Positions 5,686 to 48,736 of a stretch of DNA of 64,000 nt are shown piece by piece. The position numbers and the translations under genes are program-made. The notes beneath the pieces are model-generated. The model did no database searches, was not told the DNA's origin, and worked only from the letters and a program-made list of their open reading frames with translations. The number at the start of each line of letters is the position of its first letter. Within the stretch, counting starts at the first letter, position 1. The DNA is taken from assembly GCA_964607575.1 (NCBI GenBank), contig CAZSLS010000008.1:9799-73798 (forward strand). Reading direction: 5' to 3'. The stretch comes from an uncultured Planctomycetaceae bacterium. GTDB lineage: Bacteria > Planctomycetota > Phycisphaerae > SM23-33.

Positions 5686-5693
5686 GGTCTACC

Positions 5694-7831: not shown

Positions 7832-9172
7832 AGCGATCTTGTCCTTCAGCGTCTGGTAACCGTAGTGGGCCATCAGGTTGTCCAGCAGGACCAGCGCCGT
7901 ATAGTTCTCCGCGACGGGCCATATCCGCGCCACGATGGTCGGATCGCGCCTGGTGATCGCCTCGAGGGCCTTGCTCTCGAGGGTGTATTTGTCGATGGTC
8001 GTCTGCGGTTTGTCGATTGTCGGGGTGGGCTTGACCGCCAGGCGAACCACGATCGGCTGCCCGGTCGACAGGCCTCCGGTGATCCCGCCGGCGTTATTCG
8101 AGTCGAAGACCACCTTGCCATCCTCGGCGTGCATGGAGTCGTTGGACTCTATGCCTGTCATGTCCTTGACCGCGAATCCGGCGCCAATCTCCACGCCCTT
8201 GACCGCGCCAATCCCCAGCATCCGTCCGAGTTCGGCGTCCAGCTTGTCGAACACCGGTTCGCCCAGACCGGCGGGCAGACCCGTGGCGACTACTTCAACC
8301 ACGCCGCCGCAGGAATCGCCGGTGGCTGCGATCTTGTTGCAGGCCTCGACCATTTCCTGCGCCGCGTCCAGGTCGGGGCAGTTAACGATATGATGCACGC
8401 CGTACTTCTCGCGTATGGCGTCGGGATCCATCTTCGGCGCTTTTTCGCGGATCGGGTCGATCTCCTTCTCGATCTCCGCCAGTATCGCCGTCTTCTCGAG
8501 GAAGCGCATCTCGGGGGTGATCCGCCCGTTGACGTACACTTCCTGGTAGAACGGATCGTAATCGCAGCGCATCTGTTTGTAGGCGTCGGTGTACTTCAAC
8601 GCGGTCTCGTGATCCGCCGCGTCGCAGCGAACGCCGGCGATCTCGCGAACGTACGAGAACACATCGATACCGCAGGCCTTGAGGATCTTCTTGGCCACGA
8701 AGCCCGCGCCGACGATCGTGGAGGTATAGCGGCCGCTGAATATCCCCGCGCCGATCGCATCGTCATCGGGCCCGTACTTCATGAACGAGGCGTACGACGC
8801 ATGCCCGGGGCGCGGTGTGCGATTGGTGTCCTGGTACTGCTTGATGTGGATGAAGTGGCGGTCGAGGTTCGGGATCAGGATCGAAAGCGGCGTCCCGTTG
8901 GTGTGGTTCCAGTTGCCTGCGCCCTCGATCGTATCAGCCGCATTCAACCCGGTATAAATCACCGGGAGGTCGGGCTCTTTCCGAGGTGACGACAGTTCGT
9001 CGGCGCCCGGTTTCCTCAGCAGCAGATCTCCGTATATCTCCTGCTCCGTCAACAGCATCCCCGGTGGTACGCCCTCGAGAACGGCGGTCAGACCGTCCTG
9101 GTAGGATCCACCGGCCACTGTAACCTGAAAGCATCTTCCTAAATGACATCCCAGCATGGTTTGTTGCTCCAT
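7823..9172 (-). CDS. aroC: Chorismate synthase homolog (divergent)
   Basis: RPGHASYAS, GIFSGRYTSTIV, GDSCGGVVEVVATGLPAGLGEPVFDKLDAELGRMLGIGAVKGVEIGAGF, NNAGGITGGLSTGQPIVVRLAVKPTPTI and RRDPTIV match chorismate synthase blocks. The N-terminal GESHG motif reads GGSYQ, and there is an insertion of roughly 60 aa before the GDS block. Confidence 0.7.
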   Translation of the reverse strand: MEQQTMLGCHLGRCFQVTVAGGSYQDGLTAVLEGVPPGMLLTEQEIYGDLLLRKPGADELSSPRKEPDLPVIYTGLNAADTIEGAGNWNHTNGTPLSILIPNLDRHFIHIKQYQDTNRTPRPGHASYASFMKYGPDDDAIGAGIFSGRYTSTIVGAGFVAKKILKACGIDVFSYVREIAGVRCDAADHETALKYTDAYKQMRCDYDPFYQEVYVNGRITPEMRFLEKTAILAEIEKEIDPIREKAPKMDPDAIREKYGVHHIVNCPDLDAAQEMVEACNKIAATGDSCGGVVEVVATGLPAGLGEPVFDKLDAELGRMLGIGAVKGVEIGAGFAVKDMTGIESNDSMHAEDGKVVFDSNNAGGITGGLSTGQPIVVRLAVKPTPTIDKPQTTIDKYTLESKALEAITRRDPTIVARIWPVAENYTALVLLDNLMAHYGYQTLKDKIANQ

Positions 9173-11144: not shown

Positions 11145-11297
11145 AACGCCCGATGCCCCGATGGTACTTCACCGAGCAGGAAAATGTTTGTTGGCTCTCG
11201 GGTTCATGATACAATTGCCGATACTGAAAATGCCCGCGATGGTCGCGGGGTCGAGTCCATCCGGGCAATCCCGGTTCATGACAGGAAGGATTACAAA

Positions 11298-14200: not shown

Positions 14201-15140
14201 TCCATACTACGGGACGTGGGGCGAATTCCGGGCGATTCCCCGCGGGCAGCGCGAAAAACGCAGCAAGTTCCGCCAGCTTTACGCGGGAATCGATGCCGAC
14301 TACGAAGTCGTGCCAAAAGTCGCGACAAAACCGGTCAAGACGATCCTGCCCAAGCCGTTGAAAACTGCGGCACCGGTGAAGATCGCCTGCCCCAACTGGC
14401 CTTTCGACGACGCGGCCGCCAAGACCCTGCAGGGAAATGACAACAAGCGGACGATCACTGTAACCGTCGGCGAAAACAAGCTTCAGATCGAAATGGTGCG
14501 CATACCCGCCGGGCAGTTCGTCATGGGCGACGCCGCGGGAGCACTCGACGAGAAACCGATCTGCCGCGTGAAACTCGATAAGTCGTTCTGGATCGCGACC
14601 AAGATCATCACCAACGGACAGTACGCATTGTTCGACGCGAAGCACGACAGCCGCTACCTCGACCGCGGCGGAAAGGACCACTCGAATCGCGGTCATCCGC
14701 TCAACAGGCCCGAGCAGCCGGTCATTCGCATTTCGTGGAACCGGGCGATGGCGTTCTGCGATTGGATGTCCAAAAAGACGGGCAAGACCTTCTCGCTTCC
14801 GACTGAAGCCCAGTGGGAATTCGCCTGCCGCGCCGGCGCCGCCGCCGACAAGAGCGGATCGGGAAGCGTCTGGGGCGCGGGCCTGCCCGCCGCGATGGGC
14901 GAGTGGACACGAACGACCTATCGACCCTACCCCTACATCGCGACCGACGGACGCGACAACGGGAAACCCGCCGGACGCAAGGTCATTCGCGGCGCCAAGG
15001 GGCTCAAAGTACCGGGCGATCGTCGCGATACATACCGCTTGAGCTATCAATCGTGGCAGGGAGTCTGGAACGTCGGTTTCCGAGTCATCTGCCTGGACGA
15101 GGATCTCAAGAGCATAATAGCGAACGCCAAGCCGAGGTAG
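11298..15140 (+). CDS. Secreted multidomain protein: N-terminal beta-sandwich, HzsA-like beta-propeller with two CXXCH motifs, C-terminal FGE/SUMF1 domain
   Basis: ATG at 11298 ([25 protein letters not shown]). Propeller motifs [50 protein letters not shown]. Heme-c motifs CVGCHE and CIGCHN. C-terminus [12 protein letters not shown] ... [14 protein letters not shown] ... [11 protein letters not shown] is an FGE-sulfatase-like domain. Confidence 0.7.
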
Positions 15141-20292: not shown

Positions 20293-20754
20293 ATGACATA
20301 CGCGAAATTCGGGATTATGGCACTGGTGCTGGTGGCGGTGATGATCGGCGGTTGTGGTGCGGCCATTGAGAAGGCTAACCAGGCAAAGTGCAGGGCGAAT
20401 CTCAACGGCATCATGAAGGCCTGCGCTATATATGCGGCGGAGAATAAGGATAAGTACCCCGAGAACCTGAAAATCCTGATGGATGACGACAGTGACCTGC
20501 TTCCCGCCGATGCTCTCAAGTGTCCCAGCGACAAGTCCCAACGAGCATGCAGCTACCTGTATGTGGCGCCCGCGCCTGATGCAGAGGAGCAGACATTGAT
20601 GTTGTGCGACCTCAAGGGCAATCACGCAAAGGTGCGGTGCGTGGCATTCAAGAACACAATCGGTACGAGAATGTCAGAAGAGGAATTCCAAGCCGCACTG
20701 AAACTGCCCCGCAACGCCGCATTCGCCGCCGCACTGGAAAAAGCAGGCGGTTAG
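20293..20754 (+). CDS. Membrane-anchored hypothetical protein (pseudopilin-like segment without a prepilin motif)
   Basis: MTYAKFGIMALVLVAVMIGGCG anchor or lipobox. CRANLNGIMKACAIYAAENKDKYPENL resembles the post-helix segment of type II pseudopilin-like proteins. Weak call. Confidence 0.45.
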   Translation: MTYAKFGIMALVLVAVMIGGCGAAIEKANQAKCRANLNGIMKACAIYAAENKDKYPENLKILMDDDSDLLPADALKCPSDKSQRACSYLYVAPAPDAEEQTLMLCDLKGNHAKVRCVAFKNTIGTRMSEEEFQAALKLPRNAAFAAALEKAGG

Positions 20755-21953
20755 CGGGCGATTGCTTCGCGGTAGAGGTCGATCATCATCGCTACCTGGG
20801 TCTCCCACGTGAAGTTCTGATATGCGTAGCGGTTGGCGTTGGGGCCTTTGGTCTGCTTGGAGTTCTGCTCGATCTCGCTGATGATGGCTGCGGCGAGCGC
20901 CTCGGGGTCGTCGACGGGGACCAGGGCGCCTACTTCATCGTTGATGAAGTCGGGCAGACCGCCTTCGTTGGTGGCTACCACGGGGGTCCCGCACGCCAGG
21001 GCCTCGATCGCGACCAGGCCGAACGCTTCGAAGCGCGAGGGTACGACCGAGACGTCGGCGGCGTTGTAGATGCGGGAGACCTTGTCCTGCGACTGGTGTC
21101 CGAGGAAATGTACGCCGGTCAGATCGAGTTCGTCTCGCAGGGCGTGCATTTCGTCCCAGAGCTGCCCATCGCCGGCGAGGACCGTCATCGCGCCGCCGAG
21201 GTGTTGTTCGTAGATTTTCGCGGCCCGGAGGAGTACGTCGATACCCTTGAACTCGGTGAACTTTCCGACGAAGCTGATCAGCGGTCCGTCGGCGGGGGGC
21301 AGATTGTGTTCGGCCAGCACGGCGGTTTTCGTGGCGTCGGGGATGAGCTTGAAGTGATCGACGCCGAACCCGTTCCAGATCAGCACTGCTCGGTTGTCCG
21401 CCACGCCGTAGGTCTCGACGACGTCGGTCTTCACCTGTCGGGAGATGGCGATAATCTTGTGGGCGCCGTTCGCTCCGGCCAGGGCCATCTCGCGATAGCG
21501 GGCGCACTGGGCGAATCCGAGCAGGTCCGTACCGTGACACGTGACGATGTACGGGACATGAGTTTCGGCGGCGATGCAGGGGGTGACCCACACGTGATGT
21601 GCGTGGATGACGTCCGGTTTGAAGTCGGTGATCGCATCGCCGATGGCCACCCGCCACGCCCGGACGTAGGCTTCCATCTGCGTGTCGGACAGTTCGGCGA
21701 ACGTTATCGTACTGCGCGGATGCGTGGTGAAACACGGAAAGTTGAAATCGAGCTGCGCCCCGCCGCCCGCGCCGTCGGGATCGCGGAAGATGATCGCCCT
21801 GGTCTCAAACGGATACTCATCGACGGGGCGGTGTTCGGGAACGATCGCCATCACCTCGTGTCCGGCCCGGAGCAACTCCAACGCCACGTTCAGCGCGTAA
21901 ATACCGCTCCCTGATCCCTGCAGCGGAAAATGGTTCGGCATGAGAATCTTCAT
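20751..21953 (-). CDS. GT4-family glycosyltransferase
   Basis: MKILMPNHFPLQGSGSGIYALNVALELLRAGHEV ... FVGKFTEFKGIDVLL ... VVPSRFEAFGLVAIEALACGTPVVATNEGGLPDFI (E-x7-E region). The start overlaps the stop of the upstream cyclase gene by 4 bp. Confidence 0.85.
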   Translation of the reverse strand: MKILMPNHFPLQGSGSGIYALNVALELLRAGHEVMAIVPEHRPVDEYPFETRAIIFRDPDGAGGGAQLDFNFPCFTTHPRSTITFAELSDTQMEAYVRAWRVAIGDAITDFKPDVIHAHHVWVTPCIAAETHVPYIVTCHGTDLLGFAQCARYREMALAGANGAHKIIAISRQVKTDVVETYGVADNRAVLIWNGFGVDHFKLIPDATKTAVLAEHNLPPADGPLISFVGKFTEFKGIDVLLRAAKIYEQHLGGAMTVLAGDGQLWDEMHALRDELDLTGVHFLGHQSQDKVSRIYNAADVSVVPSRFEAFGLVAIEALACGTPVVATNEGGLPDFINDEVGALVPVDDPEALAAAIISEIEQNSKQTKGPNANRYAYQNFTWETQVAMMIDLYREAIAR

Positions 21954-23191
21954 CTGGATTTTCGTGTTCGCAGATATTCGACCGCTTCGGTGATAATCGA
22001 TTCATCGAGATGGTGCAGTTCGCACTTGTCGCCCAGGTTGTCGGGCAGCGTCACGTTCAGGCGTCCGCCGAGGTGTTCGCGGAAGTCGGTAAGCCCGGCG
22101 AGGATGTCCAGCTCGCCGCCGGTCCGGCGCGAGAGATAGTCCAGATAGATCGGTAGCCCGCAGGCCGTCAGACCGTCGAGGATACGCTCGAACTGCTCGG
22201 AAGTTATCAGGCCTTCGCGCATCGCGTAGCAGGAGTCCAGGGCGATACCCACCGCCACCGCCTGCCCGTGCCCGACCCAGTAATCGCTCATCGTTTCGAT
22301 CTTGTGTGCCGACCAGTGTCCGAAGTCCAGCGGCCGGGCAGAGCCGGTCTCGAACGGGTCGCCGGCTGAGGAAATGTGGTCCAGGTGTACAATCGCGCAG
22401 CGGCGGATCAGCGTTTCCATCGCGGCGATGTCGCGATTTTTCAGGGCCTCGGCGTTATCGCAGAGGAACTCGAAGAATTCGGCATCCTTGATGATCGCCA
22501 CTTTGAAGGCTTCTGCTATTCCGCCGAGCCAGTCGCGATCGGCCAGCGTATCGAGCATCGAAAAGTCGTTGACCACCGCGAACGGCGGGGCGAACGTACC
22601 GATGAAATTCTTCTGCCCGTGTTCGTCCATGGATGTCTTGACGCCGACGCCCGCATCGTTCTGGGCCAGCACGGTAGTTGGCATGCGAACCACCCGCACT
22701 CCGCGATGGACCAGCGATGCGGCGAAGCCAACCGCGTCGAGCATCGCGCCGCCACCGATCGCCAGCACATAGCTCTGGCGGTCGAGGTGAATATTGCCCG
22801 CCGTCCAGAGTATGTCGCGGATCGTCTTCCAACCGTTCTTGGCGCCCTCGCCGCCGGGCACAATCGTCGGGCCGGAGGCGAGCTCGAGCGTCTTGCTGTG
22901 TGCGTGGAAGTATTCCTTTATCTCGGTGATGACCCCGGCGCGAGCCTCGGCGAGCCCGGAGTCAACGAAGATCGCCACCCGATGGACCCGCTGCTCGTCG
23001 AGTCGATCGAAGACCGACGCCAGCAGCGGATCGCCCGGAGCGAAAACGTCTCGCGCGAAGTGGACCGGATAATCGAACCGCACCGCAAATTGCTGATGAT
23101 AGACATCGGCTCCGGCGGCGATTCGACGAGGCGTATGCGATTCCCGGCTAATGCTCATGTTGGTAAATTCTCTCTGCTGCCCGCTGTCCAC
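21950..23191 (-). CDS. 3-dehydroquinate-synthase-like sugar phosphate cyclase (eboD-like)
   Basis: AIGGGAMLDAVGFAASLVHRGVRVVRMPTTVLAQNDAGVGVKTSMDEHGQKNFIGTF ... IAEAFKVAIIKD ... GHWSAHKIE ... HGQAVAVGIALD is a DHQS-superfamily pattern. It departs from the AroB VDSSVGGKTGIN block. Alternative start at 23158. Confidence 0.75.
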   Translation of the reverse strand: MDSGQQREFTNMSISRESHTPRRIAAGADVYHQQFAVRFDYPVHFARDVFAPGDPLLASVFDRLDEQRVHRVAIFVDSGLAEARAGVITEIKEYFHAHSKTLELASGPTIVPGGEGAKNGWKTIRDILWTAGNIHLDRQSYVLAIGGGAMLDAVGFAASLVHRGVRVVRMPTTVLAQNDAGVGVKTSMDEHGQKNFIGTFAPPFAVVNDFSMLDTLADRDWLGGIAEAFKVAIIKDAEFFEFLCDNAEALKNRDIAAMETLIRRCAIVHLDHISSAGDPFETGSARPLDFGHWSAHKIETMSDYWVGHGQAVAVGIALDSCYAMREGLITSEQFERILDGLTACGLPIYLDYLSRRTGGELDILAGLTDFREHLGGRLNVTLPDNLGDKCELHHLDESIITEAVEYLRTRKSR

Positions 23192-23252
23192 CCGTCGGCA
23201 GGTATTCTCTAGTAATCAACGCAGGCGAGCCGCCCGGATTTCCTGCATCCGC

Positions 23253-24581
23253 TTATTCTAACGAATTGCCCACCGCTCGGGCAAGGGAAACGATGTCGTT
23301 GATTTCTCCGCCCAGCGCTACCGACGAGGCCCAGGCGACCTCGCGACCCGCTCCGAAGGCCCCGTGCGACCCGCCGATACGCGACGAATCCTGGGAGATA
23401 CTGATAGGCGGCCAACCGAAGAACAGCTCGCATGGATCGAACCCGGGCTTGTTGTGGATATCGACGTGGCGCGCGTAGTCCGGCGCCTGCGCGGGATCGG
23501 TCCACCATTGATAACCGAGCCACCGCCCCTGGCTCGCCACCGCCAGCAGTTCGCCGGAATTCGGATGTCCCAGACCCAACCGGGCCATCGCTTCGGCGTC
23601 CAACACCGTCTCGATACCGTCGATGGTCCGCAGCGTTTCGGCAGCCAGCGCCACATCGCCCGGATTGGAAACGTAAACGTGGGCGATCTGGTGGTCGCAG
23701 ACTGCCACCGCGCGGCTTGCGGGCAGGACCGGGTAGAGCATCCCGTTGACCTGGCGCGTTTCGAGCAGCCCGGCATTGAGCAGGGCGCGGTTAGGCAGGA
23801 CCGCGGGGCCCGAGACCGGCGAGATCGCGTAATCGCCGAAAAGCAGCACTTCGTAACCGCACTGTTTCGCCCCGTTTATCAGGCGTCCGAGTTGGGCCTC
23901 CAGGGCGTCGGCGGCCTTGGCGGCGCGGGGTCCGTCGGGCCCGTATCGCTGGAGATCGTAGTCCAGCGTGGGCAGGTAGGTCAGGCAGAGATCGGACGCC
24001 AGGTCGCGGTCTTGGCATATCGCAAGTGTCGCGTCGGCGATCCAGTCGCCGGCCTTTACCGACGCCATGGGCCCCCAGTAGTGACTCAGCTTGAACTTCC
24101 GTCCGATCTGCTCGCAGAGGTTCTGATACAGCCCGGAGGGCTTGGTGTAGCAGTCCTGGATCATGCCCCCGTGATGCTTGTGGATCGGCGCGGGCGTGAC
24201 GATTATGTCGGCGGCTTCGCCTATCGACTGCTGCCAGAACAGCATCGCAACGCGCCCGCCCGCGGCGCGGAGATCTTTCCATATCCGCTCGCCGCTAACC
24301 AGGCCGGCGGATTGCTCCCAGAACATTACCCGCCCCAGGTCGCGCCGATAGAGCCCGTTGGCGATCATACCATGCACCGACGCGTCGGTGGCGGTACGGA
24401 ACGCGGCTTGGGCCGAACAGGTAACCCCCGGTACACCGCCGTCAATCGGCGCGAAGTCCAACCCCATCCACCGGACCGAATCGATCCCGCCGCCGCAGCG
24501 ACGCTTGAGGAACTCATAGCCCAGCGCGGCGGTCTGGACTACCAGCAGTTTTTTATGTTCTACCTTCCCGTCAGTTGCCAT
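23253..24581 (-). CDS. Alkaline-phosphatase/nucleotide-pyrophosphatase superfamily protein (eboF-like)
   Basis: ATG at 24581, 5 nt after the PmbA-like stop. VPGVTCSAQAAFRTATDASVHGMIANG matches the NPP nucleophile-Thr ... HG block. About 442 aa. Confidence 0.6.
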   Translation of the reverse strand: MATDGKVEHKKLLVVQTAALGYEFLKRRCGGGIDSVRWMGLDFAPIDGGVPGVTCSAQAAFRTATDASVHGMIANGLYRRDLGRVMFWEQSAGLVSGERIWKDLRAAGGRVAMLFWQQSIGEAADIIVTPAPIHKHHGGMIQDCYTKPSGLYQNLCEQIGRKFKLSHYWGPMASVKAGDWIADATLAICQDRDLASDLCLTYLPTLDYDLQRYGPDGPRAAKAADALEAQLGRLINGAKQCGYEVLLFGDYAISPVSGPAVLPNRALLNAGLLETRQVNGMLYPVLPASRAVAVCDHQIAHVYVSNPGDVALAAETLRTIDGIETVLDAEAMARLGLGHPNSGELLAVASQGRWLGYQWWTDPAQAPDYARHVDIHNKPGFDPCELFFGWPPISISQDSSRIGGSHGAFGAGREVAWASSVALGGEINDIVSLARAVGNSLE

Positions 24582-24586
24582 AGTCA

Positions 24587-25906
24587 CTACAGGGTGAAGC
24601 GGAAGTTGTCGATCAGTGCGCCCGGGAGATTCATGCTGTCTGTCGAGCGTGCGTAATATGTGTCGTTGTCGGGCAGGAACTCGCGATGGCTCGTCAGGTC
24701 GATCAGGTTCTCGCCGAGGATGCGATAGATCGTCTCGTCGAATCTCATGACGTTCAGCGGCGCGACGATCTTTCCGCCCTCTACCCAGAACGTCGCGAAT
24801 CGCGTCATGCCCGTCATGCGACAGGCCGGGACGTCCGAATAGTTCAGATACCACAGCGTGTTTACGTAAACCCCCGTGTCCAGCGCGTCCAGCACATTGT
24901 CGGTGTCGAGCGTTCCGACCGCCATCTCCAGCGAGCTGTGCCACTCGTTTCCGCCGGTTGTGGGTTGGTCATACTCAGCCGCACTGCGAGGCGAGATCAG
25001 GCAGTCGCGGTACTGACCGTCTTCTATCAGCGTTACGCATTCGGACTGGGCGTACCCGTATGTTGAGAAACGCGGCGCCAGTCCGCCGGCGGTGTTCTCG
25101 CGAATCGTCACTGACGGCGCCAGCGTCGCTCCGTCTGCGATCATCTTCAATAGCGACGTGTTCTTGGTGCGATGGTCCTTCAGGCTGAAACCGCCTCCCC
25201 ATGAGAGCATCTGCATTATCTCCTGCATCGCCGCCGGCGCCAGGAAAACGCGATACTCGCCCGGATCGATCGTTCGCGCCTCGCCGCTCAGCACCGCCAA
25301 CTGTTCGGCGGCTGTGTCGACGGTGCGGGCGAAATCCCGGTCGTCCCAGGCGAATCCGGCGTAGGAGGCCTTTACCGCTTTGTCGCCCTGGTGGTAGAAG
25401 CACCAGTCCATGTTGAAGCTCGGGCGGGCGTACCAGTTCTTCTGTCCGAGAGAATTGGCGAACCCCGCCTCGATAGCTCCGCCGGCGTAGATTCCGACCA
25501 GGTCGCGTCCCTTACCCGCGCTCAGAATGGTGTCGACTGCATCGTTTGACGCCGGAAGCGTGTTGTTGTGGACATCATGGCTCGAACATACATCGGTCGC
25601 GTAGAGCAGATACGGATCTTCGGGCACGTGCTTCAGGTCGCTGCGCATCTGTACGAGCAACGATAGAAGTTTTGGCTGGTCCGCGTCGCTCTGTCCGCTA
25701 AGCGTGGTCGACGAACTGATATGACGCTTCCCGTCGATCAATCTCAGCACAATATCCCGCTGGGTGACGCTTCCGGGCTGGCAGATCAGGGAGCGATTGA
25801 AGCGGACGAAATCCGACTGCTCGCCTTGGTAGTATCCCAGCAGCACTTCGTCACCGCTTAATGTTGCGCTGAGTGCATCAACGTATTTGTAGAGTAATTC
25901 CATCAT
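24587..25906 (-). CDS. PmbA/TldE-family protein (TldD partner)
   Basis: 439 aa with overall TldD/PmbA-fold similarity (GVYVNTLWYLNYSD, MTRFATFWVEGGKIV). No HExxxH-type motif seen. The start overlaps the TldD stop by 4 bp. Confidence 0.75.
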   Translation of the reverse strand: MMELLYKYVDALSATLSGDEVLLGYYQGEQSDFVRFNRSLICQPGSVTQRDIVLRLIDGKRHISSSTTLSGQSDADQPKLLSLLVQMRSDLKHVPEDPYLLYATDVCSSHDVHNNTLPASNDAVDTILSAGKGRDLVGIYAGGAIEAGFANSLGQKNWYARPSFNMDWCFYHQGDKAVKASYAGFAWDDRDFARTVDTAAEQLAVLSGEARTIDPGEYRVFLAPAAMQEIMQMLSWGGGFSLKDHRTKNTSLLKMIADGATLAPSVTIRENTAGGLAPRFSTYGYAQSECVTLIEDGQYRDCLISPRSAAEYDQPTTGGNEWHSSLEMAVGTLDTDNVLDALDTGVYVNTLWYLNYSDVPACRMTGMTRFATFWVEGGKIVAPLNVMRFDETIYRILGENLIDLTSHREFLPDNDTYYARSTDSMNLPGALIDNFRFTL

Positions 25907-27345
25907 TGCTCTTCTCCGCCGAATACGTCTACGTTTTCGAACAGCGCCGGGCTGCTGGCGTGTGCTACTCGGATAACCTGGTTCGGTTCGCCCTTACCGC
26001 AGTTCGGGGTGCCCATAACCAGCGTTTCATCCGCCGGGCCGACCGCCTTGAGGCTTCGCCAGAACGTCGCCGAAATTCCGCGGTAGTTGCAGTTCTTGAC
26101 CACCTTGGTGAGCTTCCCGTTTTCGATCAACCGCCCCCGTTCGCATCCGAACTGGAACTTGTTGCGGGAGTCGTCGATCGACCAGGAACAGTTGGTCTCC
26201 ATGTAAACGCCTCGCTCGACCGAGGCGACCATCCGCTCAAACGGTGTGTCGCCCGGTTCAAGATTCAGGTTCGCCATCCGATCTATCGGCGGGCGGTTCC
26301 AGCTGCACGCTCTGGCGTTTGCGACGCCGGGCAGTCCGGTGCGCCCCTGGCTTACCGTGGCTCCGAGCGACCGCAGGAGGACTCCGTCCTTTATGATCCA
26401 GGTTTTTTCAGCTTTTGCGCCTTCATCGTCGTAACCGTAGCTTGCCAGTTGCTCGGGGTGAGTTGGGTCGTAGGTGATGTTCAGCTTGTCGCTTCCGTAC
26501 TGGTACGAACCCAGCATATCCATGGTCACGAAGCTCGTGCCGGCGTAGTTGCGTTCGTCGCCTAGTATGCGGTCCAGTTCCAGCGGGTGTCCGATCGATT
26601 CGTGGATCTGCAGTATCATCTGGTCGGGCGCCAGGATCAGGTCGGTTGGTCCGGTGGGGCAGTTGTCGGCGGTAAGCAGTTCGATCGCCTCAGACGCCAA
26701 TCGCGGCGCCGCGGTGGTGAACCCGAATGTGTCGAGCACTTCCATTCCGCCCTGTTGACAGAACGAATGTCCGCCGAGTGAACGGGTTTGGGTTTCGGCG
26801 CCTTGGTTGGCCGTTACGTTCATCGAGGGGGTGGTGTAGTGGAAAGCCTGGGCGATCCGTCCGCCGTGGGAGGTGAGCAGCAGTGATTCTGTCGACAGCA
26901 TCCCTATCCCAGCCGACCAGTCCACGATGCGGTCATCGGTTTTCAGGCGGGCGCACTGCTGTTTGAGCAGATCGTAGCGGTCCTCCAGGCTCACCTCGGA
27001 CCATGGGCGGATGTTCGGTCCGGACAGTTCGGCCTGATGGCTCGGCCAGTCGATTTTTGAGAAATCGGTCACCGCCCGTCCTGACGCCTGTTTGGCCCAC
27101 CAGGCCGCCCGCGCGGCCGCTTCAGAGAGTCCCGCCGGGCCGAGATCGCACGTGGCGGCGTAGCCCAGACCGCCATCTGCAACCACGGTTATCATCACGC
27201 CGGCCTCTTCGCAGCGTGAGACGGGCAACGGTTCATCCTCCCTGACCGCGACGGATTCTTCGCGTTCGACGAGATAGCGAACCGAACAATAATCCACGCC
27301 GGCGGGCATGGCGTCGCGCAGGCGTTTTTCGAGAGTTTCTGTCAC
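25903..27345 (-). CDS. tldD: TldD-family metalloprotease
   Basis: GTG start at 27345. Metal-binding block ILQIHESIGHPLELD, plus GVYMETNCSWSIDDSRNKFQFGCERGRLIENGKL and a C-terminal pattern typical of TldD. Confidence 0.85.
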   Translation of the reverse strand: MTETLEKRLRDAMPAGVDYCSVRYLVEREESVAVREDEPLPVSRCEEAGVMITVVADGGLGYAATCDLGPAGLSEAAARAAWWAKQASGRAVTDFSKIDWPSHQAELSGPNIRPWSEVSLEDRYDLLKQQCARLKTDDRIVDWSAGIGMLSTESLLLTSHGGRIAQAFHYTTPSMNVTANQGAETQTRSLGGHSFCQQGGMEVLDTFGFTTAAPRLASEAIELLTADNCPTGPTDLILAPDQMILQIHESIGHPLELDRILGDERNYAGTSFVTMDMLGSYQYGSDKLNITYDPTHPEQLASYGYDDEGAKAEKTWIIKDGVLLRSLGATVSQGRTGLPGVANARACSWNRPPIDRMANLNLEPGDTPFERMVASVERGVYMETNCSWSIDDSRNKFQFGCERGRLIENGKLTKVVKNCNYRGISATFWRSLKAVGPADETLVMGTPNCGKGEPNQVIRVAHASSPALFENVDVFGGEEQ

Positions 27346-27446
27346 AGTGTGTTTCCTGTTTTGTTGTTACACATAATAAGGCATTGGCGTGTCGCGTAAA
27401 CAAAAGCTTTTTCAGCATCAAAGATGGTAAGGCGATACCCGCGGCG

Positions 27447-30400
27447 CTATTTCTTTTTTTTCTTCTTCCTGTTGCGCGGCGGCTTGGGCGGTTTGGGCGA
27501 CGACGTCATCGTGTTGATCGTGCGTTGAAGGCTCTTGATCCTTCTTTCGGCCCGCTTCTTATCGGCGCTGGTCTTTGCGGCGGCGAGTTTCTTTTTCGCT
27601 TCTGCGAGTTTCGCCTCGAAGAGGGGCGCGGCGGCCTTTGCGTTGGGACCGATCTTGCCCAGGGCGGCTTCGGCGAAGCCCCTTGAGCCGCGGAGTCCGT
27701 ACGTTGAACTCGCCTCTGCGAGAAGGGCCTTGACGGCGGCGTCTGTGTTGTGGCCTCGCCGGGCCATGTTCACCAGCGACTCGCGGAGGCGGTTTCGCCC
27801 GCAGACGCTTGTTTCTTTGTGGAACGCCTCGATCAGCTCGCCGGCCTTGCCGTCGGTTTCGGGCTCCTGAACGTAGCCTAATACGTGCGATACCCCCGCG
27901 CGGACCCACCATTCCTCGTCGTGGGCCAGTGCGAGGACCTCGTCGAGATGCTGCGCGGCGGCCTTGCCGCAGTTGGCCAGGGCCATTAACGCGCCCTCGC
28001 GGATGTATGCGTCTTCGTGCTTGAGCAGGGGCAGGAGTTTTGGGACGGCCTGTCCGGCGATTTCGGTGGTCATCCCTTCCGGCCAGTTTGGTCTGCCTCG
28101 CCCGTTCATCGCGTACCTGCCGCCCAGCGCGTCGCACCCGCTGCGAATCACGCGGATGTCGTTGGAGTCGAGGGCCTTGAGAATATAGGGCATGGCCTTT
28201 TCGCCATCGGGCATCATCGAGTAGGCCGCATCTCGCCGGAGTCGCGAATCGTAGTGGCCCAGGTATTTTGCCCGTTCTGCAAGCGGGGTCTTCCTCGGCG
28301 CTTCGGAGCCCTTCTTCCCGGAAAAGTCGGCGCGAAGCGGCCCGATCGGGTCGTTAGGTTTTCCGGGCGGGTCCATGATCAGGCCCGTGGTCATCGCCGG
28401 CAGGACGGTGGTGAGCCTGGGGCGCCCGGGCGTCTTGGTCGACAGGTCGGGCGCGGCGAGTTTGGTTACGATCGCCCAGCCGTCGTCGCGAGGCTCAAAG
28501 CCCAGGGTGTCGCCGCGTGTGTTTGCGTACAGGCCGAAGTCCGCGCCATTGCCCGACGAGAGGCGGACGGCCAGCACGTTGCGGCCCTTGCCGAGGCGTT
28601 TGATCGTTGCCGGCGGCAGGTCGATGGTCACCAGCGCGTTCATCCTCATTCGCGGGCCTTGTGTGGCGTTGGACCAGAGGATCGGGGCTCCGTTGAGGAA
28701 CGCCACGGCCCGGGAGTTTTTCAGCAGGCGAAGCGTCAGCACTACCGACTTGTAGTCCGTTCGGTCGCAGTTAAAGACGATACGCAGATAGGGCGCCGAT
28801 CGCGGGGCGACTTGCAAGCCTTCGCCGCGACCGGCGATTGGCCCGGCGCCGGCGGTCCACTTGCTGTCGTCGAAATTCGCCTCGGTCCAGCCCTTTGGCG
28901 GCGCTTCGCCTCTGGGCACGCCGAGCAGGCGCCAGGTCGGTTTCTTGCCCGGATATCCTTTGCTGCAGGCTGCGGCCAGGGGGGTCCAGTTCTTGTCGAG
29001 CAGTTCGGTAAGCACGCCGGCTTGGTACAGCGTGTTCAGTGCGGCGATTTGCGTCCAGTTGCCGCTTCGGATTCCCGATACGCGGAGCATGCTTGCCCGA
29101 GCCAATTCGTCGATCCGCCACGTGCCGACATATTCCTTGTAGAGCAACTCGCTGTAAAACGTCCATCGCGAGGCGTCCGGCGAGGTGGCAAGTTCGTTGC
29201 GGGCGAGCCTCTGGTATGGTCCGGCCGACGGGTCGGCGGCCAGTTTCTCGAACACTTCGCGGGCCTTGGGGTGCGTGTAGGTCAACCACTTGTACCGCTC
29301 GTAAAGCCCGCGGGCCCTTGCCAGCGGTCCGGCGTTCTTGTGCGTGCGGATTTGCCAGCGGAATGCCCCGAGCCTAAGGTCCCTGCCTCCGCCGGCGAAT
29401 CGCGCCAGGTCGGTGGTCATCTGACTCGCACTGGCAAGGTTGTTTCCTGCTATCGCCGCTTCGATCTTCGCCAGTGTCAGCTCAATGTCCTTTTCCTTGC
29501 GATCGGCTGCGGCGAGCAGTTGACGGGCCAGGTCGCTGTCGGACTTCACCGTCTTGCGGAGGTTGTCAAACTTGCGGTCGCGGTACAGCTCGACGCCTTT
29601 TGCGATGTTCGCGGGCAGTTTTTGTGCTGCAAAAACGCTCCTGGGCCCGCCGTGGATTCGCAAGTTGGCTCCGGGCATAGCGTACAGTTGGGCCATTCCT
29701 CCGGTGGCCAGCACCGGGCCGCGGTAGGTGTAAATGTGCCCGATAATCGACTCGGGCAGCAGGAACCCGCCGTCCCAGCGGCGCGAGACGTTCATCAACC
29801 ACCCCCAGTGGTCGAGCATGCGGCGGTAGTCCGGGTAGTGCGGGTCGCGCGCCCCGTGGAAGTTTCCCCAGACGAATCCCATGAATCCACCGGTGTGCCC
29901 GCGCGTTCGCCCTTCGTAGCTGCCTGTGACCAGACGGGCGAAGTATTCGCTCTTGGCCCGGTCACCGAGGATATTGAAGCACACGCCCGGAATCGCGTTT
30001 TTGCCATTGCCCCCTCCGAACTCCGGGCGGTGATCGCCGTAAGGCACCGAACCGCGAAAGGCGAACCGCGAGAAGAACTTCGTGGCGTTATTCAGGGCTG
30101 TGTCGCTTACATCCGCCCGGCTTCCTTGATCAGCACCAGCGCCATCCAGCAGACCAATCCGCAGTTGTTCAAGTTGCCGCCCTGTACGTATCCCGGGGAG
30201 GGGTAAGGTCCGTGGCCCCACGAACCGCAGGGCAGTTGGCTTCGGGCCAGCGTGTCGGCGACCGCTTCGCAGATCGGCAGGATGGTTCGGTCGCCTGTCT
30301 TGAGGTAATACTCGGCCAGGAACAGGCCCATGTACCCCCAGCCCCAGTTGGTTGTGTTGGTGGATTCGGGGTCGAAGTATTTGCGGTATCCGTATGCCAG

Positions 30401-31024
30401 GCGCCGGGCGTTTTCCAGGTATTTCGGATTGTCCGATGCCAGCCAGGTCAGCCCGTTCAGCGCGAAGCCCACGTGTATCTTACCGTCGAACGTGCCGTCT
30501 GTGTTCTGGATGCGGGCGAGGTATTCGCAGGCGTCGATGTGGATGGCGCGACTCTTGGCGCAGTTGAAGGGCCAGTCGGCGCCTATCGCTCCGAGTTTGC
30601 GCATTGGGATCGTCAGGTTCTTTTTCACCCCGCCGCGCAAAACCTGCACCGCCAGCTTACCGGTGCGTTCGGACGGTTCGATCTGCAGGCCGAGCGTTTT
30701 GAGCGGCTCGGAGCCGAGCGCCTTACCGTTTACGGTCAGGATGATGTCGTTGGGCAGGGCGATCTTGTCGGCCGGTGATCCGTTCTCGACTTCCCGCACC
30801 ACCAGCTTGTCACCGAATATCCACCCGTTCATGCCCGTAGGACCGAATACGGTGGGCACGTGGAACTGCCTGCCGCACAGGGCAACGTCGGGACTCAGTT
30901 CGTCGCTGCGGAAGAAGTTGTCGCTCTTCGAGGGAGTTGCGCCCAAACCGAGCGTCGCCACCGCCGAGACGATTGCGATGATACTTGTGAGTTTGATGGG
31001 TGTCATGCCAGTTCCTTGATTCAC
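27447..31024 (-). pseudogene. Large secreted PDZ / alpha-alpha-toroid-like / HEAT-repeat protein, interrupted by a 1-nt frame change near 30107-30125
   Basis: ORF 30107..31024 (signal peptide, PDZ-like VVREVENGSPADKIALPNDIILTVNGKAL, toroid-like repeats) ends LVLIKEAGRM*. The overlapping frame of ORF 27447..30221 continues ADVSDTALNNATKFF with no plausible start nearby. The C-terminal part has HEAT-like repeats and a KPPKPPRNRKKKKKK tail. Confidence 0.55.
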
Positions 31025-32751
31025 TTGGCCAGCGAGACGCCGTGGCCCTTGTTATAGAGTGCGAGCACTTGCTCCTCGCTAAGCGGTCGGGACCAGATGC
31101 CCACCTCGTCGAACGCTTCGAACTGGCGGGCGATCTTCTTGATATTCCCGATCATCAACATCGCATCCTTGGCCGGGATGATGTGGTTGTCCTTCGCGAT
31201 ACCCCAGAACGGCTTGTCCAACTGTCCGCACGGGGCGCCCTTTTTCCCCTTGCCTCCCTTGGGCGCTTTGACGCCGTCGATGTATATCTCGAACGCCTTT
31301 CGCGAACCATCGTACATGACCGCCACGTGACGCCACTCATTACCGTCGGAGATAACATCGCCCGGACCGCCGTTGAACTTGAACCCCTTGGTCCCTCCGG
31401 CCAGACCGGCGGTTATAAACACCCCGCCCTTGGTTCCCCAGCACATGGCGTCCCAACCGGCGACGTTGGCGGTGTGGCTGTAGTACCAGTTGGTCGGAGC
31501 CCGCTCGATCTTCTTTCCGACGCCCTTTCCGATGCGCCCGCAACCGTAGTAGTTGGTGCGGTACCAGTAGGAAACCGTCAGGTTCTCGATATTTCCGCTC
31601 GCCCCGACCACATCCTTGTAATCGGGGAACTGAACGTGCTGCAGGCCGGTAAGCTGCAAACTCTTACCAATCACGCCCTGGGTCCACTCGGGTTTTCCGA
31701 TGAGCTTTCCGTCGGCGCAGCCGGCGTGGTCTTTTGTGGTCGCGCCCTTGCCTTCATCGAACGACCAGTATCCGATCAGGCCTTTGGTGAGTTTGGAAAG
31801 ATCGTACTTGGACTCCACCCGCTTGGCCCGGGCGGTGTACTTTCGGCCTGCTTTGAGCGTTTTGGCGTTGTCCTGGGGCACCGTGGTTTTGATGAAAGGC
31901 AGCATCGCCTTGCCCCCGCGCTCGCCGATGGTGATCATGCCCGGCGTGTTGTAGTGGCCTTTGGGATGCAGATCCATGGTTGATACCCATGCGGCCTGCC
32001 CGTCCGCCTCGGCGACCTTCTTCTGTGCGGCGCGAATCACCTTCCCGCCGCCTTTGCGGTTCCACACCGGGGCGGGCCCGATCTGGTAGATCAACACCGG
32101 TAGCTTGGGTACCGCCAGTTCGGTGCGCACGTCATGGATCAGGTCGCGCAAGTTCTCTTCATAATAATTCCAGAAGCCTGTCGAGCGATCATCCTTGACC
32201 ACTTCAGCCAGCGAATCGTTTTCGCCCTGGAACCAGACGAATCCGGCGAGTTCAAATTTTTGACCGTCATACTGCGGGTAGTCGCTCTTGGGATTGGCCA
32301 GGAAACGGTGGAATCGTCGCATCATGCGAAGGTACAGATCGCCCACCCTGCCGCCGGCCCGCTTGACCGCGCTGGGCGGACGCCAGCGGGTGTGCAGTTG
32401 CGTCCCGCCGGTGGCTGATTTGAACATGACGATGGGATTGTCGACGGCCTCGCCGAGGATTCTACCCATCACCAGTTCCGGACCGAAGATATTGTCGGAT
32501 GCGGCGCCTCCGCCAAAGCCGCATTTCAGCGGGCCGGATATCTTTCCAGCACGGATACACCACACGTCATCTCGCGGTTTATCTATGCCGGGGAATCGAG
32601 TGGTGCATTCCTTGCCGAAATAGTTGTGCCCTTCCATGTTGGATTGCCCGGCCATCAGGTAGATCTTGATTGGTTTCTTGTCCGCGGCCTGGGCGGAACC
32701 GGCGGCGATCAGGCAAAGCAACACCGCGACGATGATCTTATTATTCAGCAT
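31021..32751 (-). CDS. Secreted sialate-O-acetylesterase-like (SASA/SGNH) protein with a C-terminal LamG/concanavalin-like domain
   Basis: ATG at 32751 (MLNNKIIVAVLLCLIAAGSAQA). IYLMAGQSNMEGH and GFVWFQGEND are SASA-type blocks. The C-terminus LIGYWSFDEGKG ... NEWRHVAVMYDG ... VGIWSRPLSEEQVLALY is LamG-like. The stop overlaps the next start by 4 bp. Confidence 0.7.
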   Translation of the reverse strand: MLNNKIIVAVLLCLIAAGSAQAADKKPIKIYLMAGQSNMEGHNYFGKECTTRFPGIDKPRDDVWCIRAGKISGPLKCGFGGGAASDNIFGPELVMGRILGEAVDNPIVMFKSATGGTQLHTRWRPPSAVKRAGGRVGDLYLRMMRRFHRFLANPKSDYPQYDGQKFELAGFVWFQGENDSLAEVVKDDRSTGFWNYYEENLRDLIHDVRTELAVPKLPVLIYQIGPAPVWNRKGGGKVIRAAQKKVAEADGQAAWVSTMDLHPKGHYNTPGMITIGERGGKAMLPFIKTTVPQDNAKTLKAGRKYTARAKRVESKYDLSKLTKGLIGYWSFDEGKGATTKDHAGCADGKLIGKPEWTQGVIGKSLQLTGLQHVQFPDYKDVVGASGNIENLTVSYWYRTNYYGCGRIGKGVGKKIERAPTNWYYSHTANVAGWDAMCWGTKGGVFITAGLAGGTKGFKFNGGPGDVISDGNEWRHVAVMYDGSRKAFEIYIDGVKAPKGGKGKKGAPCGQLDKPFWGIAKDNHIIPAKDAMLMIGNIKKIARQFEAFDEVGIWSRPLSEEQVLALYNKGHGVSLAK

Positions 32752-32837
32752 GTGAAAGTTCCTTCTCTGCGGATAATGCCGGGTATATGGGCGCGACAAT
32801 TTTATTCGAGGGGCGGGGGCGTTGGCAAGAGCCGGCC

Positions 32838-33845
32838 CTAACTTGCGTAGAACCGCCTGCTTAGCGGGATGAACGCCAGATACGCCAGGCCCAAGGCGAT
32901 TGCCAACGGTATCCCCTCGTTATGGGCGCCGGTCGAGTAGCTGTTGAAGTAGACTACGGCGGCCTGGATCAGCAGCAGGTTGCCTACCAGTTCACCCACC
33001 ACGGTCTGGACGATTCGAGGTTCGCTCTTGCCCGTCAGTCGCCATCCGCAGACCAATGCGACAGCAACGGGCAAGCCCGCGATAACGATGAAACTCAAGC
33101 AACTCAGGACGTTGTCCCATTGAGGCCAGGGATACATCACGCAGGACATCCAGACCGCTGTTATCGCGCCAGGCAGCCATGGGCGGATCCGCATCCTGGA
33201 AGTTTTGGTTTCCCGCGCGGCGATCAGCGTGACCGAGGCGATGTAGAGGATCATGGGCGTGATCGGGTAGAACGGCCAGGAAAGCAGCATCGACAGCTTT
33301 TCCCACGCCAGCAACCCGCCTGCGGAGTCCTGCCCCAGATTCAGCGACGAACTGATCGCCAGCCCCAGAAAAATGCTGAGTCCCCGACAGAGCCCCATGT
33401 TCAGCGCCCCGGCGATCGGAATGCGCTTAACGCCCGCGTTGTAACTCACCACCGCCACCGCCAGTGCCGCGGCGATACCGGCGCAGAGCGCCCCGTTGAA
33501 TGCGGCCGCCGCCACACCGCCGATCAGGAGAATGATTGCAGTGATGGTGGCCGTTGTTGTGCTGATTTGGCCCGAAGGCAGGGGGCGGTTGGGCCGGTCG
33601 CGGCGGTCTTCTTTGAGATCGAACAGATCGTTGAGTATCAGCCCGGCGCAGTAGAGCAGAACGGCCGCGACGACACACGGGACAACCACCAGGATTCCTC
33701 CGGTGTCAACAAATCCTTTTTCGATGGATGAGTAGCATCCCCACGAGAAGAACCCCACGATCGGGTCTGCGGGCACGGTCAGGAGGTTCGGTATGCGCAG
33801 CAACTGCAACCAAGCGCCGAGTTGTGAGCGTTTCTCAGTTGTCAT
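32838..33845 (-). CDS. UbiA-superfamily prenyltransferase-like membrane protein (eboC-like)
   Basis: Multi-TM protein. The first Asp-rich motif is NDLFDLKEDRRDRPNRPLPSG. I see no second DxxxD-type motif; the region reads LIAARETKTS. Confidence 0.7.
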   Translation of the reverse strand: MTTEKRSQLGAWLQLLRIPNLLTVPADPIVGFFSWGCYSSIEKGFVDTGGILVVVPCVVAAVLLYCAGLILNDLFDLKEDRRDRPNRPLPSGQISTTTATITAIILLIGGVAAAAFNGALCAGIAAALAVAVVSYNAGVKRIPIAGALNMGLCRGLSIFLGLAISSSLNLGQDSAGGLLAWEKLSMLLSWPFYPITPMILYIASVTLIAARETKTSRMRIRPWLPGAITAVWMSCVMYPWPQWDNVLSCLSFIVIAGLPVAVALVCGWRLTGKSEPRIVQTVVGELVGNLLLIQAAVVYFNSYSTGAHNEGIPLAIALGLAYLAFIPLSRRFYAS

Positions 33846-33876
33846 GCGGTTGTTCGTTAGTGAGCGTTGCCGTTAT

Positions 33877-33930
33877 CGTAGACGCGGCGTCCCGCCGCGT
33901 CATTCAAAGCGGCTGGAAGCCGCTTCTACG
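33877..33930. repeat. 54-nt compound palindromic element flanked by a 10-bp direct repeat
   Basis: The outer stem cgtaga/tctacg encloses two hairpins: gacgcggcg-tcc-cgccgcgtc and agcggc-tggaa-gccgct. gttgccgtta occurs at 33866-33875 and 33939-33948. A collapsed copy lies at 46377..46402. Confidence 0.6.
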
Positions 33931-33999
33931 TTTACGCCGTTGCCGTTACTTGAAAATTGGGCGTTTCTTGTTGGCTGTTGGATGTTCTTCCGTCGCCGT

Positions 34000-34845
34000 T
34001 TACCGTTGAAACTCCCGCGGGTCCATTGGTTCTATGTCCAGTTCGGGTTTCCAGCGGGGGCACTGGGAGTAAAATGCGTTGGCGTTTCCCATTACCAGGC
34101 GCTGGATCATCTCGTCGTCGTGCCCGTCGCCCTGCATGAAATCGATCACCTTGATCAGGCTCAGCGGGTCGGAGACGCCCCAGTCGGCGGACCCCGAGAC
34201 TATCACGCGATTGGCGTCGCTGCCGAGATTCCGCAGAATCGCACTGACGCGCTGGGGCGTGAGTTTCGAGAACGGATAGACCGTCAGACCGCAATAGCAA
34301 CCGGTTTCGTTGACGGCCTGTTCGATGGTCTCTTCGACATTGTGATCGAGATATATCTTCGATTCATCGTAGCCGACCTCGCGTATGACCTTCATCGAAC
34401 GCTTTATGCCCTCGGGCTTGTTGAGGTGGGGCAGGTGAACGATCACCAGCATGTTTCGCTCGGCGGCTAGCTCGAGTTGGCGGCGGAACGCGTATTCTTC
34501 GGCGTCGGAGATGTTGTTGAAGCCGATTTCGCCGAGCGCGACGCACCGTTCGTGGTCGAGGTACTCGCCCATACCGGCGAGCACTTCATCGACCAGTGGT
34601 GTGTTTTCGGCCTCTTTAGGGTTGTAGGCGATTGCTGCGAAGTGGTCTATTCCGAATCGCCGGGCGCGGACGGTCTCGAATTCGAGCACCAGGCGGAAGT
34701 AGTCGAAGAACGTTCCGGCGTAGCGGCGGTCGGACCCTAGCCAGAACGAAGGCTCGACGCACGCGCGGATACCGGCGGAGAACATGGCCTGGTAATCGTC
34801 GGTGGTGCGGGAGTACATGTGTATGTGCGGTTCGATAATGATCAT
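34000..34845 (-). CDS. TatD-like metal-dependent hydrolase (eboB-like)
   Basis: Start MIIIEPHIHMYSRT (HxH metal motif; ATG at 34845). VALGEIGFN, MLVIVHLPH and VIVSGSADWG are consistent with a TatD/amidohydrolase TIM barrel. Confidence 0.6.
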   Translation of the reverse strand: MIIIEPHIHMYSRTTDDYQAMFSAGIRACVEPSFWLGSDRRYAGTFFDYFRLVLEFETVRARRFGIDHFAAIAYNPKEAENTPLVDEVLAGMGEYLDHERCVALGEIGFNNISDAEEYAFRRQLELAAERNMLVIVHLPHLNKPEGIKRSMKVIREVGYDESKIYLDHNVEETIEQAVNETGCYCGLTVYPFSKLTPQRVSAILRNLGSDANRVIVSGSADWGVSDPLSLIKVIDFMQGDGHDDEMIQRLVMGNANAFYSQCPRWKPELDIEPMDPREFQR

Positions 34846-34952
34846 CTGCGGTTCCTTTTGGTCGGCCCGTAAGCTATATTCAGTGTTCGATTTTCGAAAA
34901 AACATTATAACCCCAAGTCGGACCCGCTTGCACGACTGAACGGAATTGAATC

Positions 34953-48635: not shown

Positions 48636-48736
48636 CTGCGAATCCCGCACCGATGTGTGGAGGTGGTTTGGCGTTCTGTGAGTTTTGTATCGTTGGTGGC
48701 CCCTGCGTGGCAATTGTCGCGGGTAGACTGCCAGAT

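Follow-up and report, generated by a model that had tools for sequence, protein, structure and literature searches.

Do ebo genes that stand packed together with a protease pair, a glycosyltransferase, and two secreted-protein genes encode a variant pathway of their own, or do they represent a known system in rearranged form? This question is raised by nine minus-strand genes in a 64-kb stretch of planctomycete DNA (contig CAZSLS010000008.1 of assembly GCA_964607575.1; hereafter the window), a sequence that is also present as contig JASLPU010000033.1 of the Phycisphaerae metagenome-assembled genome (MAG) GCA_030744825.1 (the NCBI copy, L001) and as a JGI metagenome contig. A sequence-only reading of the window had recognized four ebo families and suggested an undescribed pathway joined to the intervening proteases, glycosyltransferase, and secreted proteins. 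By linking profile scores, identity to reference clusters, and gene order in relatives, we arrive at a different account: the region is probably a rearranged, eboA-less ebo set of the known system, with four of its five genes present here, eboE located elsewhere, and lineage-specific passenger genes inserted among them. The locus opens no new kind of system.

The ebo genes of the window

The TatD-like, UbiA-like, NPP-like, and cyclase genes are true homologues of eboB, eboC, eboF, and eboD, respectively, by sequence identity, profile hidden Markov model (HMM) scores, and synteny, and the families assigned to them earlier therefore stand. The sugar phosphate cyclase resembling dehydroquinate synthase (DHQS), eboD (21950-23191, minus strand, as are all genes of the array), carries a DHQ_synthase domain and is of the EboD type: it scores 520.9 bits against NCBIfam model NF004852 (cut-off 333), and falls below the threshold of the housekeeping AroB model TIGR01357 (203.4 bits, cut-off 305). 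That NF004852 is an EboD-type model follows from the cyclases of reference ebo clusters, which match it at 545 and 585 bits. These reference clusters are the annotated plasmid ebo clusters of Ketogulonicigenium and Deinococcus, which carry EboE together with EboA or a small protein in the EboA position, and their cyclases are 47-48% identical to the one encoded here. Among solved structures, the best AroB scores 149 bits against the eboD protein, and chains 4p53, 5tpr, and 2d2x, which we take to be EEVS, DDGS, and DOIS, score 114, 85, and 78 bits. The class of the cyclase was thus assigned from relative HMM and PDB scores and not from a phylogeny; by the HMM scores it is not the AroB-like enzyme that the sequence-only reading had named as the outcome that would speak against an ebo set. 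All 90 of 90 family-conserved residues are kept. A chorismate synthase gene (aroC) lies at 7823-9172, ~13 kb from eboD, and has a copy 88% identical in the related locus L005 (12033-13361), ~6 kb from the ebo cluster; with aroC, the organism has the final shikimate-pathway step. In the 64-kb window aroB was not found, the rest of the MAG being unsearched.

The other three proteins likewise resemble their reference counterparts. The eboB product (34000-34845), a TatD-like metal-dependent hydrolase with an N-terminal HxH motif, matches PF01026 (TatD_DNase) at 40 bits and, over most or all of its length, is 39% and 38% identical (E 1e-67 and 1e-60) to the TatD hydrolases of the annotated ebo clusters; no dedicated curated HMM matched it. 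It is 92-94% identical to its homologues in lineage relatives, 51-77% in most outgroups, and 36-41% in four Desulfobacterota loci, and it keeps 59 of 60 family-conserved residues. The eboF product (23253-24581), a phosphodiesterase of the NPP/alkaline-phosphatase superfamily (PF01663 Phosphodiest, 112 bits), is, over most of its length, 43% and 40% identical (E 1e-86 and 1e-72) to EboF of the annotated clusters and keeps 87 of 90 conserved residues. Both proteins are thus EboB- and EboF-like, a point on which the earlier interpretation had been made to depend.

The eboC product (32838-33845) is a UbiA-like membrane prenyltransferase (PF01040 UbiA, 74 bits) with an NDxxDxxxD motif at residues 72-80, and it keeps all 20 of 20 conserved columns, including N72, D73, D76, and D80. 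Its best NCBIfam match is the EboC model NF035940 (142.8 bits), followed by the SCO3242 family (112 bits); scores on the quinone and haem models are far under their cut-offs (ubiA_proteo 33 bits, cyoE_ctaB 31 bits), and MenA was not matched. With the EboC model scoring highest, the protein is by these scores not a MenA-, UbiA-, or CtaB-like prenyltransferase. It appears to qualify as EboC both by synteny, standing beside eboB and eboF orthologues, and by its Asp-rich motif. Given that nearly all family-conserved residues are kept, the four ebo proteins look functional.

Gene order in relatives and the inserted genes

The ancestral arrangement was approached through a genome scan with the eboF (NPP) protein, which returned 480 relatives (~50-79% identity) in phyla of the Planctomycetes-Verrucomicrobia-Chlamydiae (PVC) group, Desulfobacterota, and Fibrobacteria. 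Neighbourhood counts refer to the loci of the best 80 of these 480 relatives, three of which belong to the window lineage (L004-L006), a group of Phycisphaerae from marine metagenomes, and 77 of which form an outgroup (L007-L083; Phycisphaerae, other Planctomycetota, Kiritimatiellia, Lentisphaerota, Verrucomicrobiota, Desulfobacterota, and Fibrobacteria). Many of the outgroup loci come from groups that usually count as anaerobes. In the outgroup loci, the ebo genes usually form one contiguous same-strand cluster in the order eboB-C-F-D-E: eboB precedes eboC in 32 of 51 assessable loci, eboC stands directly before eboF in 54 of 69, eboD follows eboF in 58 of 71, and a gene of ~400 codons follows eboD in 47 of 52. 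The product of this last gene is bona fide EboE (NF035939, 453 bits, cut-off 250). The adjacency that the sequence-only reading proposed to look for across PVC genomes thus exists in dozens of genomes and several phyla. From this contiguity we infer that the ancestral state was a compact eboB-C-F-D-E cluster without eboA. TldD, PmbA, SASA, DUF6288, and GT4 genes were found beside ebo genes in none of the 77 outgroup loci (0/77).

Two further genes accompany subsets of the outgroup clusters. In a Verrucomicrobiota/Kiritimatiellia subset (L028, 7073-9004; also L031, L047, L056, L059, L062, and L072), the gene next upstream of eboC, in the same orientation, encodes a protein of 610-640 amino acids with, by eye, an anti-sigma-type N-terminus and a membrane-spanning segment, and with weak toroid repeats of the squalene-hopene-cyclase/prenyltransferase kind. 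This protein may serve the ebo cluster as a regulator or accessory factor. The idea that it is a missing class II terpene cyclase was rejected, as it has no DxDD motif and only weak SQHop_cyclase repeats, and a relationship to the DUF6288 protein of the window was dismissed for want of significant similarity. An O-methyltransferase (PF00891 plus dimerisation domain), which may be a tailoring enzyme, is encoded beside eboB-C-F-D-E in six loci (L017, 13468-14460; L040, L041, L049, L050, and L052).

Interruption of the cluster is confined to close relatives of the window (75-94% protein identity; 60-66% for eboC). The simplest order is that of L084, eboB-C-TldD-PmbA-F-D. In L004 the order is eboB-C-SASA-TldD-PmbA-F-D-GT4, and in L087 it is eboB-C-SASA-DUF6288-TldD-PmbA-F-D with DUF6288 intact, GT4 lacking, and a convergent gene next in line; the window has the L087 order with DUF6288 frameshifted, plus GT4. 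Partial loci show either the F-D-GT4 end (L005 and L006) or the PmbA-F junction (L085 and L086). TldD-PmbA is therefore the constant insertion, and SASA, DUF6288, and GT4 vary within the lineage. As a consequence, eboB-C and eboF-D are separated here by ~8.3 kb, in agreement with the earlier estimate of about 8 kb. The further proposal that the intervening genes belong to a variant pathway is not supported: they occur at ebo loci in this lineage only, one or more close relatives lack SASA, DUF6288, or GT4 in turn, and TldD-PmbA and GT4 are found elsewhere without ebo neighbours.

The TldD-type metallopeptidase subunit (25903-27345) contains PmbA_TldD domains 1-3 and an HExxxH motif (HESIGH, residue 248), which is missing from its PmbA/TldE-type partner (24587-25906; PF19289, 64 bits). 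Both score far under their NCBIfam equivalog cut-offs (107 vs 635 bits for TldD and 79 vs 513 bits for PmbA). TldD stands between eboC and eboF in the window, L004, L084, and L087 only, the TldD-PmbA pair also precedes eboF directly in L005, and PmbA adjoins eboF in seven lineage members (the window, L004, L005, and L084-L087), as against 0/77 outgroup loci. A metagenome scan with PmbA as query yielded ~50 other TldD-PmbA pairs (PmbA 37-63% identical), none with ebo genes within its flanks, and another ~25 PmbA loci, not long enough to reveal TldD, likewise had no ebo genes in their flanks. A general linkage of TldD-PmbA with ebo was accordingly rejected, since it is seen only in the window lineage (PmbA at least 75% identical); with no ebo neighbours elsewhere, the pair is therefore best described as a generally conserved protease pair captured here.

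The remaining insertions are less constant. The secreted SASA-esterase/LamG protein (31021-32751; PF03629 SASA and PF13385 Laminin_G_3) has a signal-peptide-like N-terminus visible in its translation. Its gene is present in the window, L004, and L087, and absent in L084 and all 77 outgroup loci, and it is probably a lineage-variable insertion outside the pathway. The gene for a secreted DUF6288/PDZ/HEAT protein (27447-31024) is frame-disrupted: the region is 3578 nt long, which is not a multiple of 3, and comprises two open reading frames (ORFs) in different frames, 30107-31024 and 27447-30221, containing DUF6288 (PF19805) profile positions 3-242 and 245-401, respectively. Comparison with the intact L087 orthologue (1191 amino acids, 4079-7651) places the cause in a 1-nt deletion between 30117 and 30116, within a G-rich stretch. 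The NCBI copy lists no gene over most of this region, only a HEAT fragment of 208 amino acids; L004 and L084 lack the DUF6288 gene. Either the gene became a pseudogene very recently, or the frame break is an error of sequencing or assembly.

The GT4 glycosyltransferase gene (20751-21953; PF00534/PF13439) follows eboD in four of five members (the window, L004, L005, and L006), in the slot where relatives have eboE, and is absent in L087. None of the three neighbourhoods inspected, among orthologues 65-71% identical in other phyla, showed linkage to ebo or cyclitol genes; the three contexts are unrelated, and GT4 was not retained as a generally ebo- or cyclitol-linked enzyme. The family stands alone in varied contexts, with a conservation that is unusually strong for a GT4. 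It is probably an independent conserved enzyme.

As claimed from the sequence alone, neighbouring genes of the array are separated by short gaps or overlap by 4 bp; the overlaps are at three junctions (SASA/DUF6288, TldD/PmbA, and cyclase/GT4), the PmbA/NPP gap is 5 nt, and the remaining gaps are 61-154 nt. Upstream of eboB lies a divergent intergenic region (34846-34952), shared with the gene of an 878-amino-acid protein, that is probably a promoter region. Both minus-strand elements described there earlier, a perfect TATAAT (34909-34904) and a TTCGA-N3-TCGAA palindrome (34898-34886; TTCGA-AAA-TCGAA), are present. The motif CGACTTGGGGTTATAATG, including this TATAAT, is conserved together with the 5' leader in the window, L004, and L084; the palindrome is not kept in L004 or L084 and was discarded as a conserved operator. 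A conserved Shine-Dalgarno-like stretch, AAAAGGAACC, supports 34845 as the first position of eboB. A sigma-70 consensus scan called no promoter in 34846-34952 because there is no -35 match. Promoter-like matches, which are consensus matches only, also occur in the 86-nt eboC/SASA and 101-nt DUF6288/TldD gaps and would fit two or more transcription units.

The alternative that survives best is that the TldD-PmbA heterodimer, GT4, or both were recruited into ebo chemistry, so that the product differs from the canonical one. The substrate of GT4 might then be the cyclitol made by EboD, or else a prenylated intermediate, and TldD/E might hydrolyse an amide intermediate. The tight packing speaks for recruitment (PmbA ends 5 nt from eboF, TldD overlaps PmbA by 4 bp, and so does eboD with GT4), as does the retention of TldD-PmbA upstream of eboF in 7/7 assessable lineage members across 75-88% protein identity, and of GT4 behind eboD in 4/5. 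The lineage eboC is strongly diverged from outgroup eboC, and the top NCBIfam match of GT4 is MshA, an inositol-phosphate glycosyltransferase. That match, however, reaches 119 bits against a cut-off of 462; no curated model attains its cut-off, and MshA, BshA, and GlgA match about equally, so the similarity is non-specific. GT4 orthologues are 62-71% identical in Chloroflexota, Deltaproteobacteria, and Oligoflexia, which across such distant phyla is typical of a conserved role of its own, and GT4 is missing from L087, which otherwise has the window architecture. Outside the lineage, neither TldD-PmbA nor GT4 was ever seen beside ebo genes (0/77 ebo loci, ~50 TldD-PmbA loci, and 3 GT4 loci), and eboE is kept elsewhere in the genome, leaving the canonical enzyme set complete. 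We therefore regard recruitment as unlikely. The same low standing applies to its fullest form, in which TldD-PmbA (and GT4 in most members) would share a transcript with eboF-eboD and modify an intermediate derived from the cyclitol or from aspartate, to give an altered, e.g. glycosylated, product. In that case, the product would be distinct from saccharoquinoline and thallusin, and TldD/E would have a small-molecule biosynthetic role.

eboE, eboA, and the proposed pathway

As noted earlier, the 64-kb window itself contains neither eboE (an AP_endonuc_2-type TIM barrel) nor eboA, by Pfam annotation of ~40 ORFs and by tblastn with reference EboE and EboA sequences. With the EboE of another Phycisphaerae locus as query, eboE was located in the same MAG, as P0234 on contig JASLPU010000098.1; its NCBI name is "metabolite traffic protein EboE", and it scores 418.6 bits on NF035939 (cut-off 250). 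The sister MAG GCA_030745875.1, the source of L004, encodes an EboE 81% identical to P0234. In both MAGs (L167, 2825-9206, and L169, 2796-9212), eboE has lepA downstream and is divergent from four genes, encoding a TPMT/TehB-like methyltransferase, an SASA esterase, a PQQ_2 beta-propeller, and a Methyltransf_23 protein. The methyltransferases could be tailoring enzymes or mere neighbours. The genome thus carries eboB, C, D, E, and F, and the description of the locus as a non-canonical set lacking eboE is not supported; the absence of eboA is the state reported for Planctomycetota (10.64898/2026.05.21.724671). With inserted genes and with eboE on another contig, the ebo genes here do not form one uninterrupted operon.

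No tblastn match to eboA was obtained in the window or in the fetched PVC-type loci, the rest of the MAG being unsearched. Four Desulfobacterota loci (L038, L039, L041, and L079) have a short ORF just upstream of eboB, whose product weakly resembles (E 1e-3 to 1e-5) a small hypothetical protein that the Deinococcus cluster encodes between eboD and eboB. This ORF could be a reduced EboA-like gene, without counterpart in PVC loci.

The displaced eboE may also be read as a sign of decay, the insertions and displacement marking a pathway under loss. The interrupted operon and the frameshifted DUF6288 gene are what such a process might leave. The frameshift, however, sits in a passenger gene and not in an ebo gene; the four ebo ORFs are intact with nearly all family-conserved residues kept, the ebo genes are 60-94% identical across at least six lineage members, and eboE is intact and 81% identical between two MAGs. 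Decay therefore seems very improbable. It is scarcely credible that the four genes are a housekeeping AroB, a UbiA/MenA/CtaB enzyme, a TatD nuclease, and a nucleotide pyrophosphatase brought onto one strand by chance, with no ebo pathway: the generic Pfam matches are indeed to broad families and aroC shows that shikimate-pathway genes occur in the organism, but the cyclase scores 203 against 305 for AroB and 521 against 333 for the EboD type, the UbiA protein reaches 143 bits on the EboC model and 31-33 on those for UbiA and CtaB, dozens of genomes of several phyla have the four genes and eboE in one contiguous run, and proteins of annotated ebo clusters are 38-48% identical to those encoded here.

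For a rearranged ebo set, the literature offers a probable chemistry. The statement that the ebo product is chemically undefined is outdated: a 2026 preprint links ebo genes to the biosynthesis of thallusin and saccharoquinoline, with deletions made in a planctomycete (10.64898/2026.05.21.724671). In Stieleria maiorica, thallusin production depends on each of eboB, C, E, and F (10.64898/2026.05.21.724671), and EboC attaches a farnesyl group to hydroxyquinaldic acids (10.64898/2026.05.21.724671; PMC9235831). For EboD, the product given in PMC12904256, where Tanoeyadi et al. 2024 is cited, is DEI. No enzyme has been assigned to the oxidative last step (10.64898/2026.05.21.724671). In Planctomycetota, eboA is absent and the ebo genes are not clustered (10.64898/2026.05.21.724671), and an earlier description likewise saw no ebo clustering in Planctomycetes (PMC5133447); the main text of the preprint names no Phycisphaerae, Kiritimatiellia, TldD, or glycosyltransferases (10.64898/2026.05.21.724671). 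By homology, EboD would supply a cyclitol here, which EboB, EboE, and EboF, together with L-aspartate, would convert to a hydroxylated quinaldic-acid-type scaffold, and EboC would then farnesylate this scaffold to a saccharoquinoline- or thallusin-type meroterpenoid.

The history of the locus may be reconstructed from the gene orders. A contiguous same-strand eboB-C-F-D-E cluster, kept in most PVC, Desulfobacterota, and Fibrobacteria relatives, was the starting point. In the window lineage, the generally conserved TldD-PmbA pair landed between eboC and eboF, and secreted-protein genes (SASA, then DUF6288) later piled up at the same eboC/eboF junction. eboE moved next to lepA, with a widely conserved stand-alone GT4 now behind eboD. 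The inserted genes would be passengers, maybe co-transcribed, and not steps of the pathway.

Contrary evidence, neighbouring features, and known systems

Several observations weigh against this account. TldD-PmbA is kept in all seven assessable lineage members at 5 nt from eboF, and GT4 overlaps eboD by 4 bp; these genes may be co-transcribed with the ebo genes and perhaps functionally coupled to them. The MAG is fragmented, and eboE belongs to it by binning, backed by the syntenic eboE in the sister MAG; the absence of eboA covers the window and the fetched loci only. The eboC protein falls under the NF035940 cut-off (142.8 vs 250 bits) and is only 28-43% identical to eboC of outgroup clusters. 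The UbiA proteins of bona fide clusters containing EboA and EboE also miss that cut-off, scoring 76-96 bits, which makes it too narrow a threshold for judging eboC, and the miss says little; given the low score and the low identity together, the substrate preference of this enzyme could nevertheless differ. Finally, the groups in which ebo genes were tied to thallusin are Pirellulales, Bacteroidota, Actinomycetota, and Cyanobacteria (preprint, 10.64898/2026.05.21.724671), and the Phycisphaerae product is assigned by homology only.

If the locus is a rearranged ebo set, a Phycisphaerae lineage from marine metagenomes is added to the carriers of a pathway that a preprint has lately connected with thallusin, a morphogen of algae. 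The compact eboB-C-F-D-E clusters without eboA in many PVC, Desulfobacterota, and Fibrobacteria MAGs refine the view of scattered planctomycetal ebo genes. The locus also calls for caution in annotation, as the "missing" eboE is on another contig and the tightly packed TldD-PmbA and GT4 genes are probably lineage-specific passengers.

With regard to the array itself, Pfam and NCBIfam reproduced the family labels of all nine genes. All nine frames are on the minus strand as described, with the correction that 27447-31024 consists of two ORFs and is not one gene. The array does not end at 20751: the minus-strand run goes on to ~15047 with a PEP-CTERM protein, a GDSL/beta-helix protein, and two more ORFs. 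Elsewhere in the window, three very large proteins have HZS_alpha middle and/or FGE-sulfatase domains (11145-15140, 55703-58198, and 60184-63168), and a second SASA esterase lies at 58299-59756; we take these to resemble the expanded secreted-protein families typical of Planctomycetota. An ordinary unit for ferrous-iron uptake lies at 48605-52111, where FeoB comes straight after a DtxR-type iron-dependent repressor with a fused FeoA domain.

Among known systems, the TldD/TldE (PmbA) heterodimer shares with the pair found here its paired genes with a 4-bp overlap, an HExxxH motif in TldD alone, and three PmbA_TldD domains; the pair differs in scoring far under the equivalog cut-offs and in being embedded in an ebo operon, which is the case only in the window lineage. 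With the canonical eboABCDEF operon (Bacteroidota, cyanobacteria such as Nostoc punctiforme, eustigmatophyte plastids, and the EDB cluster of Pseudomonas fluorescens), the genome shares five of six families, EboD and EboE passing the same NCBIfam models, and its B, F, and D proteins are 38-48% identical to those of the Ketogulonicigenium and Deinococcus clusters. In contrast to that operon, the set here has no eboA, follows another gene order, is split, and contains an eboC diverged from the NCBIfam EboC equivalog. The contiguous eboB-C-F-D-E clusters of L007-L083 have the same B-C and F-D order and strand, with TatD mostly 51-77%, NPP 50-59%, and DHQS 49-68% identical, and, as in the window, no eboA in the PVC loci; they differ in being uninterrupted, with eboE at the end and without TldD-PmbA, SASA, DUF6288, and GT4. 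The ebo set of Planctomycetota (Stieleria and Rhodopirellula; 10.64898/2026.05.21.724671), from the same phylum, likewise comprises eboB-F in the genome, without eboA and not in one operon. Whereas the Pirellulales set is described as fully scattered, here B-C and F-D stay linked on one strand and only eboE lies elsewhere.

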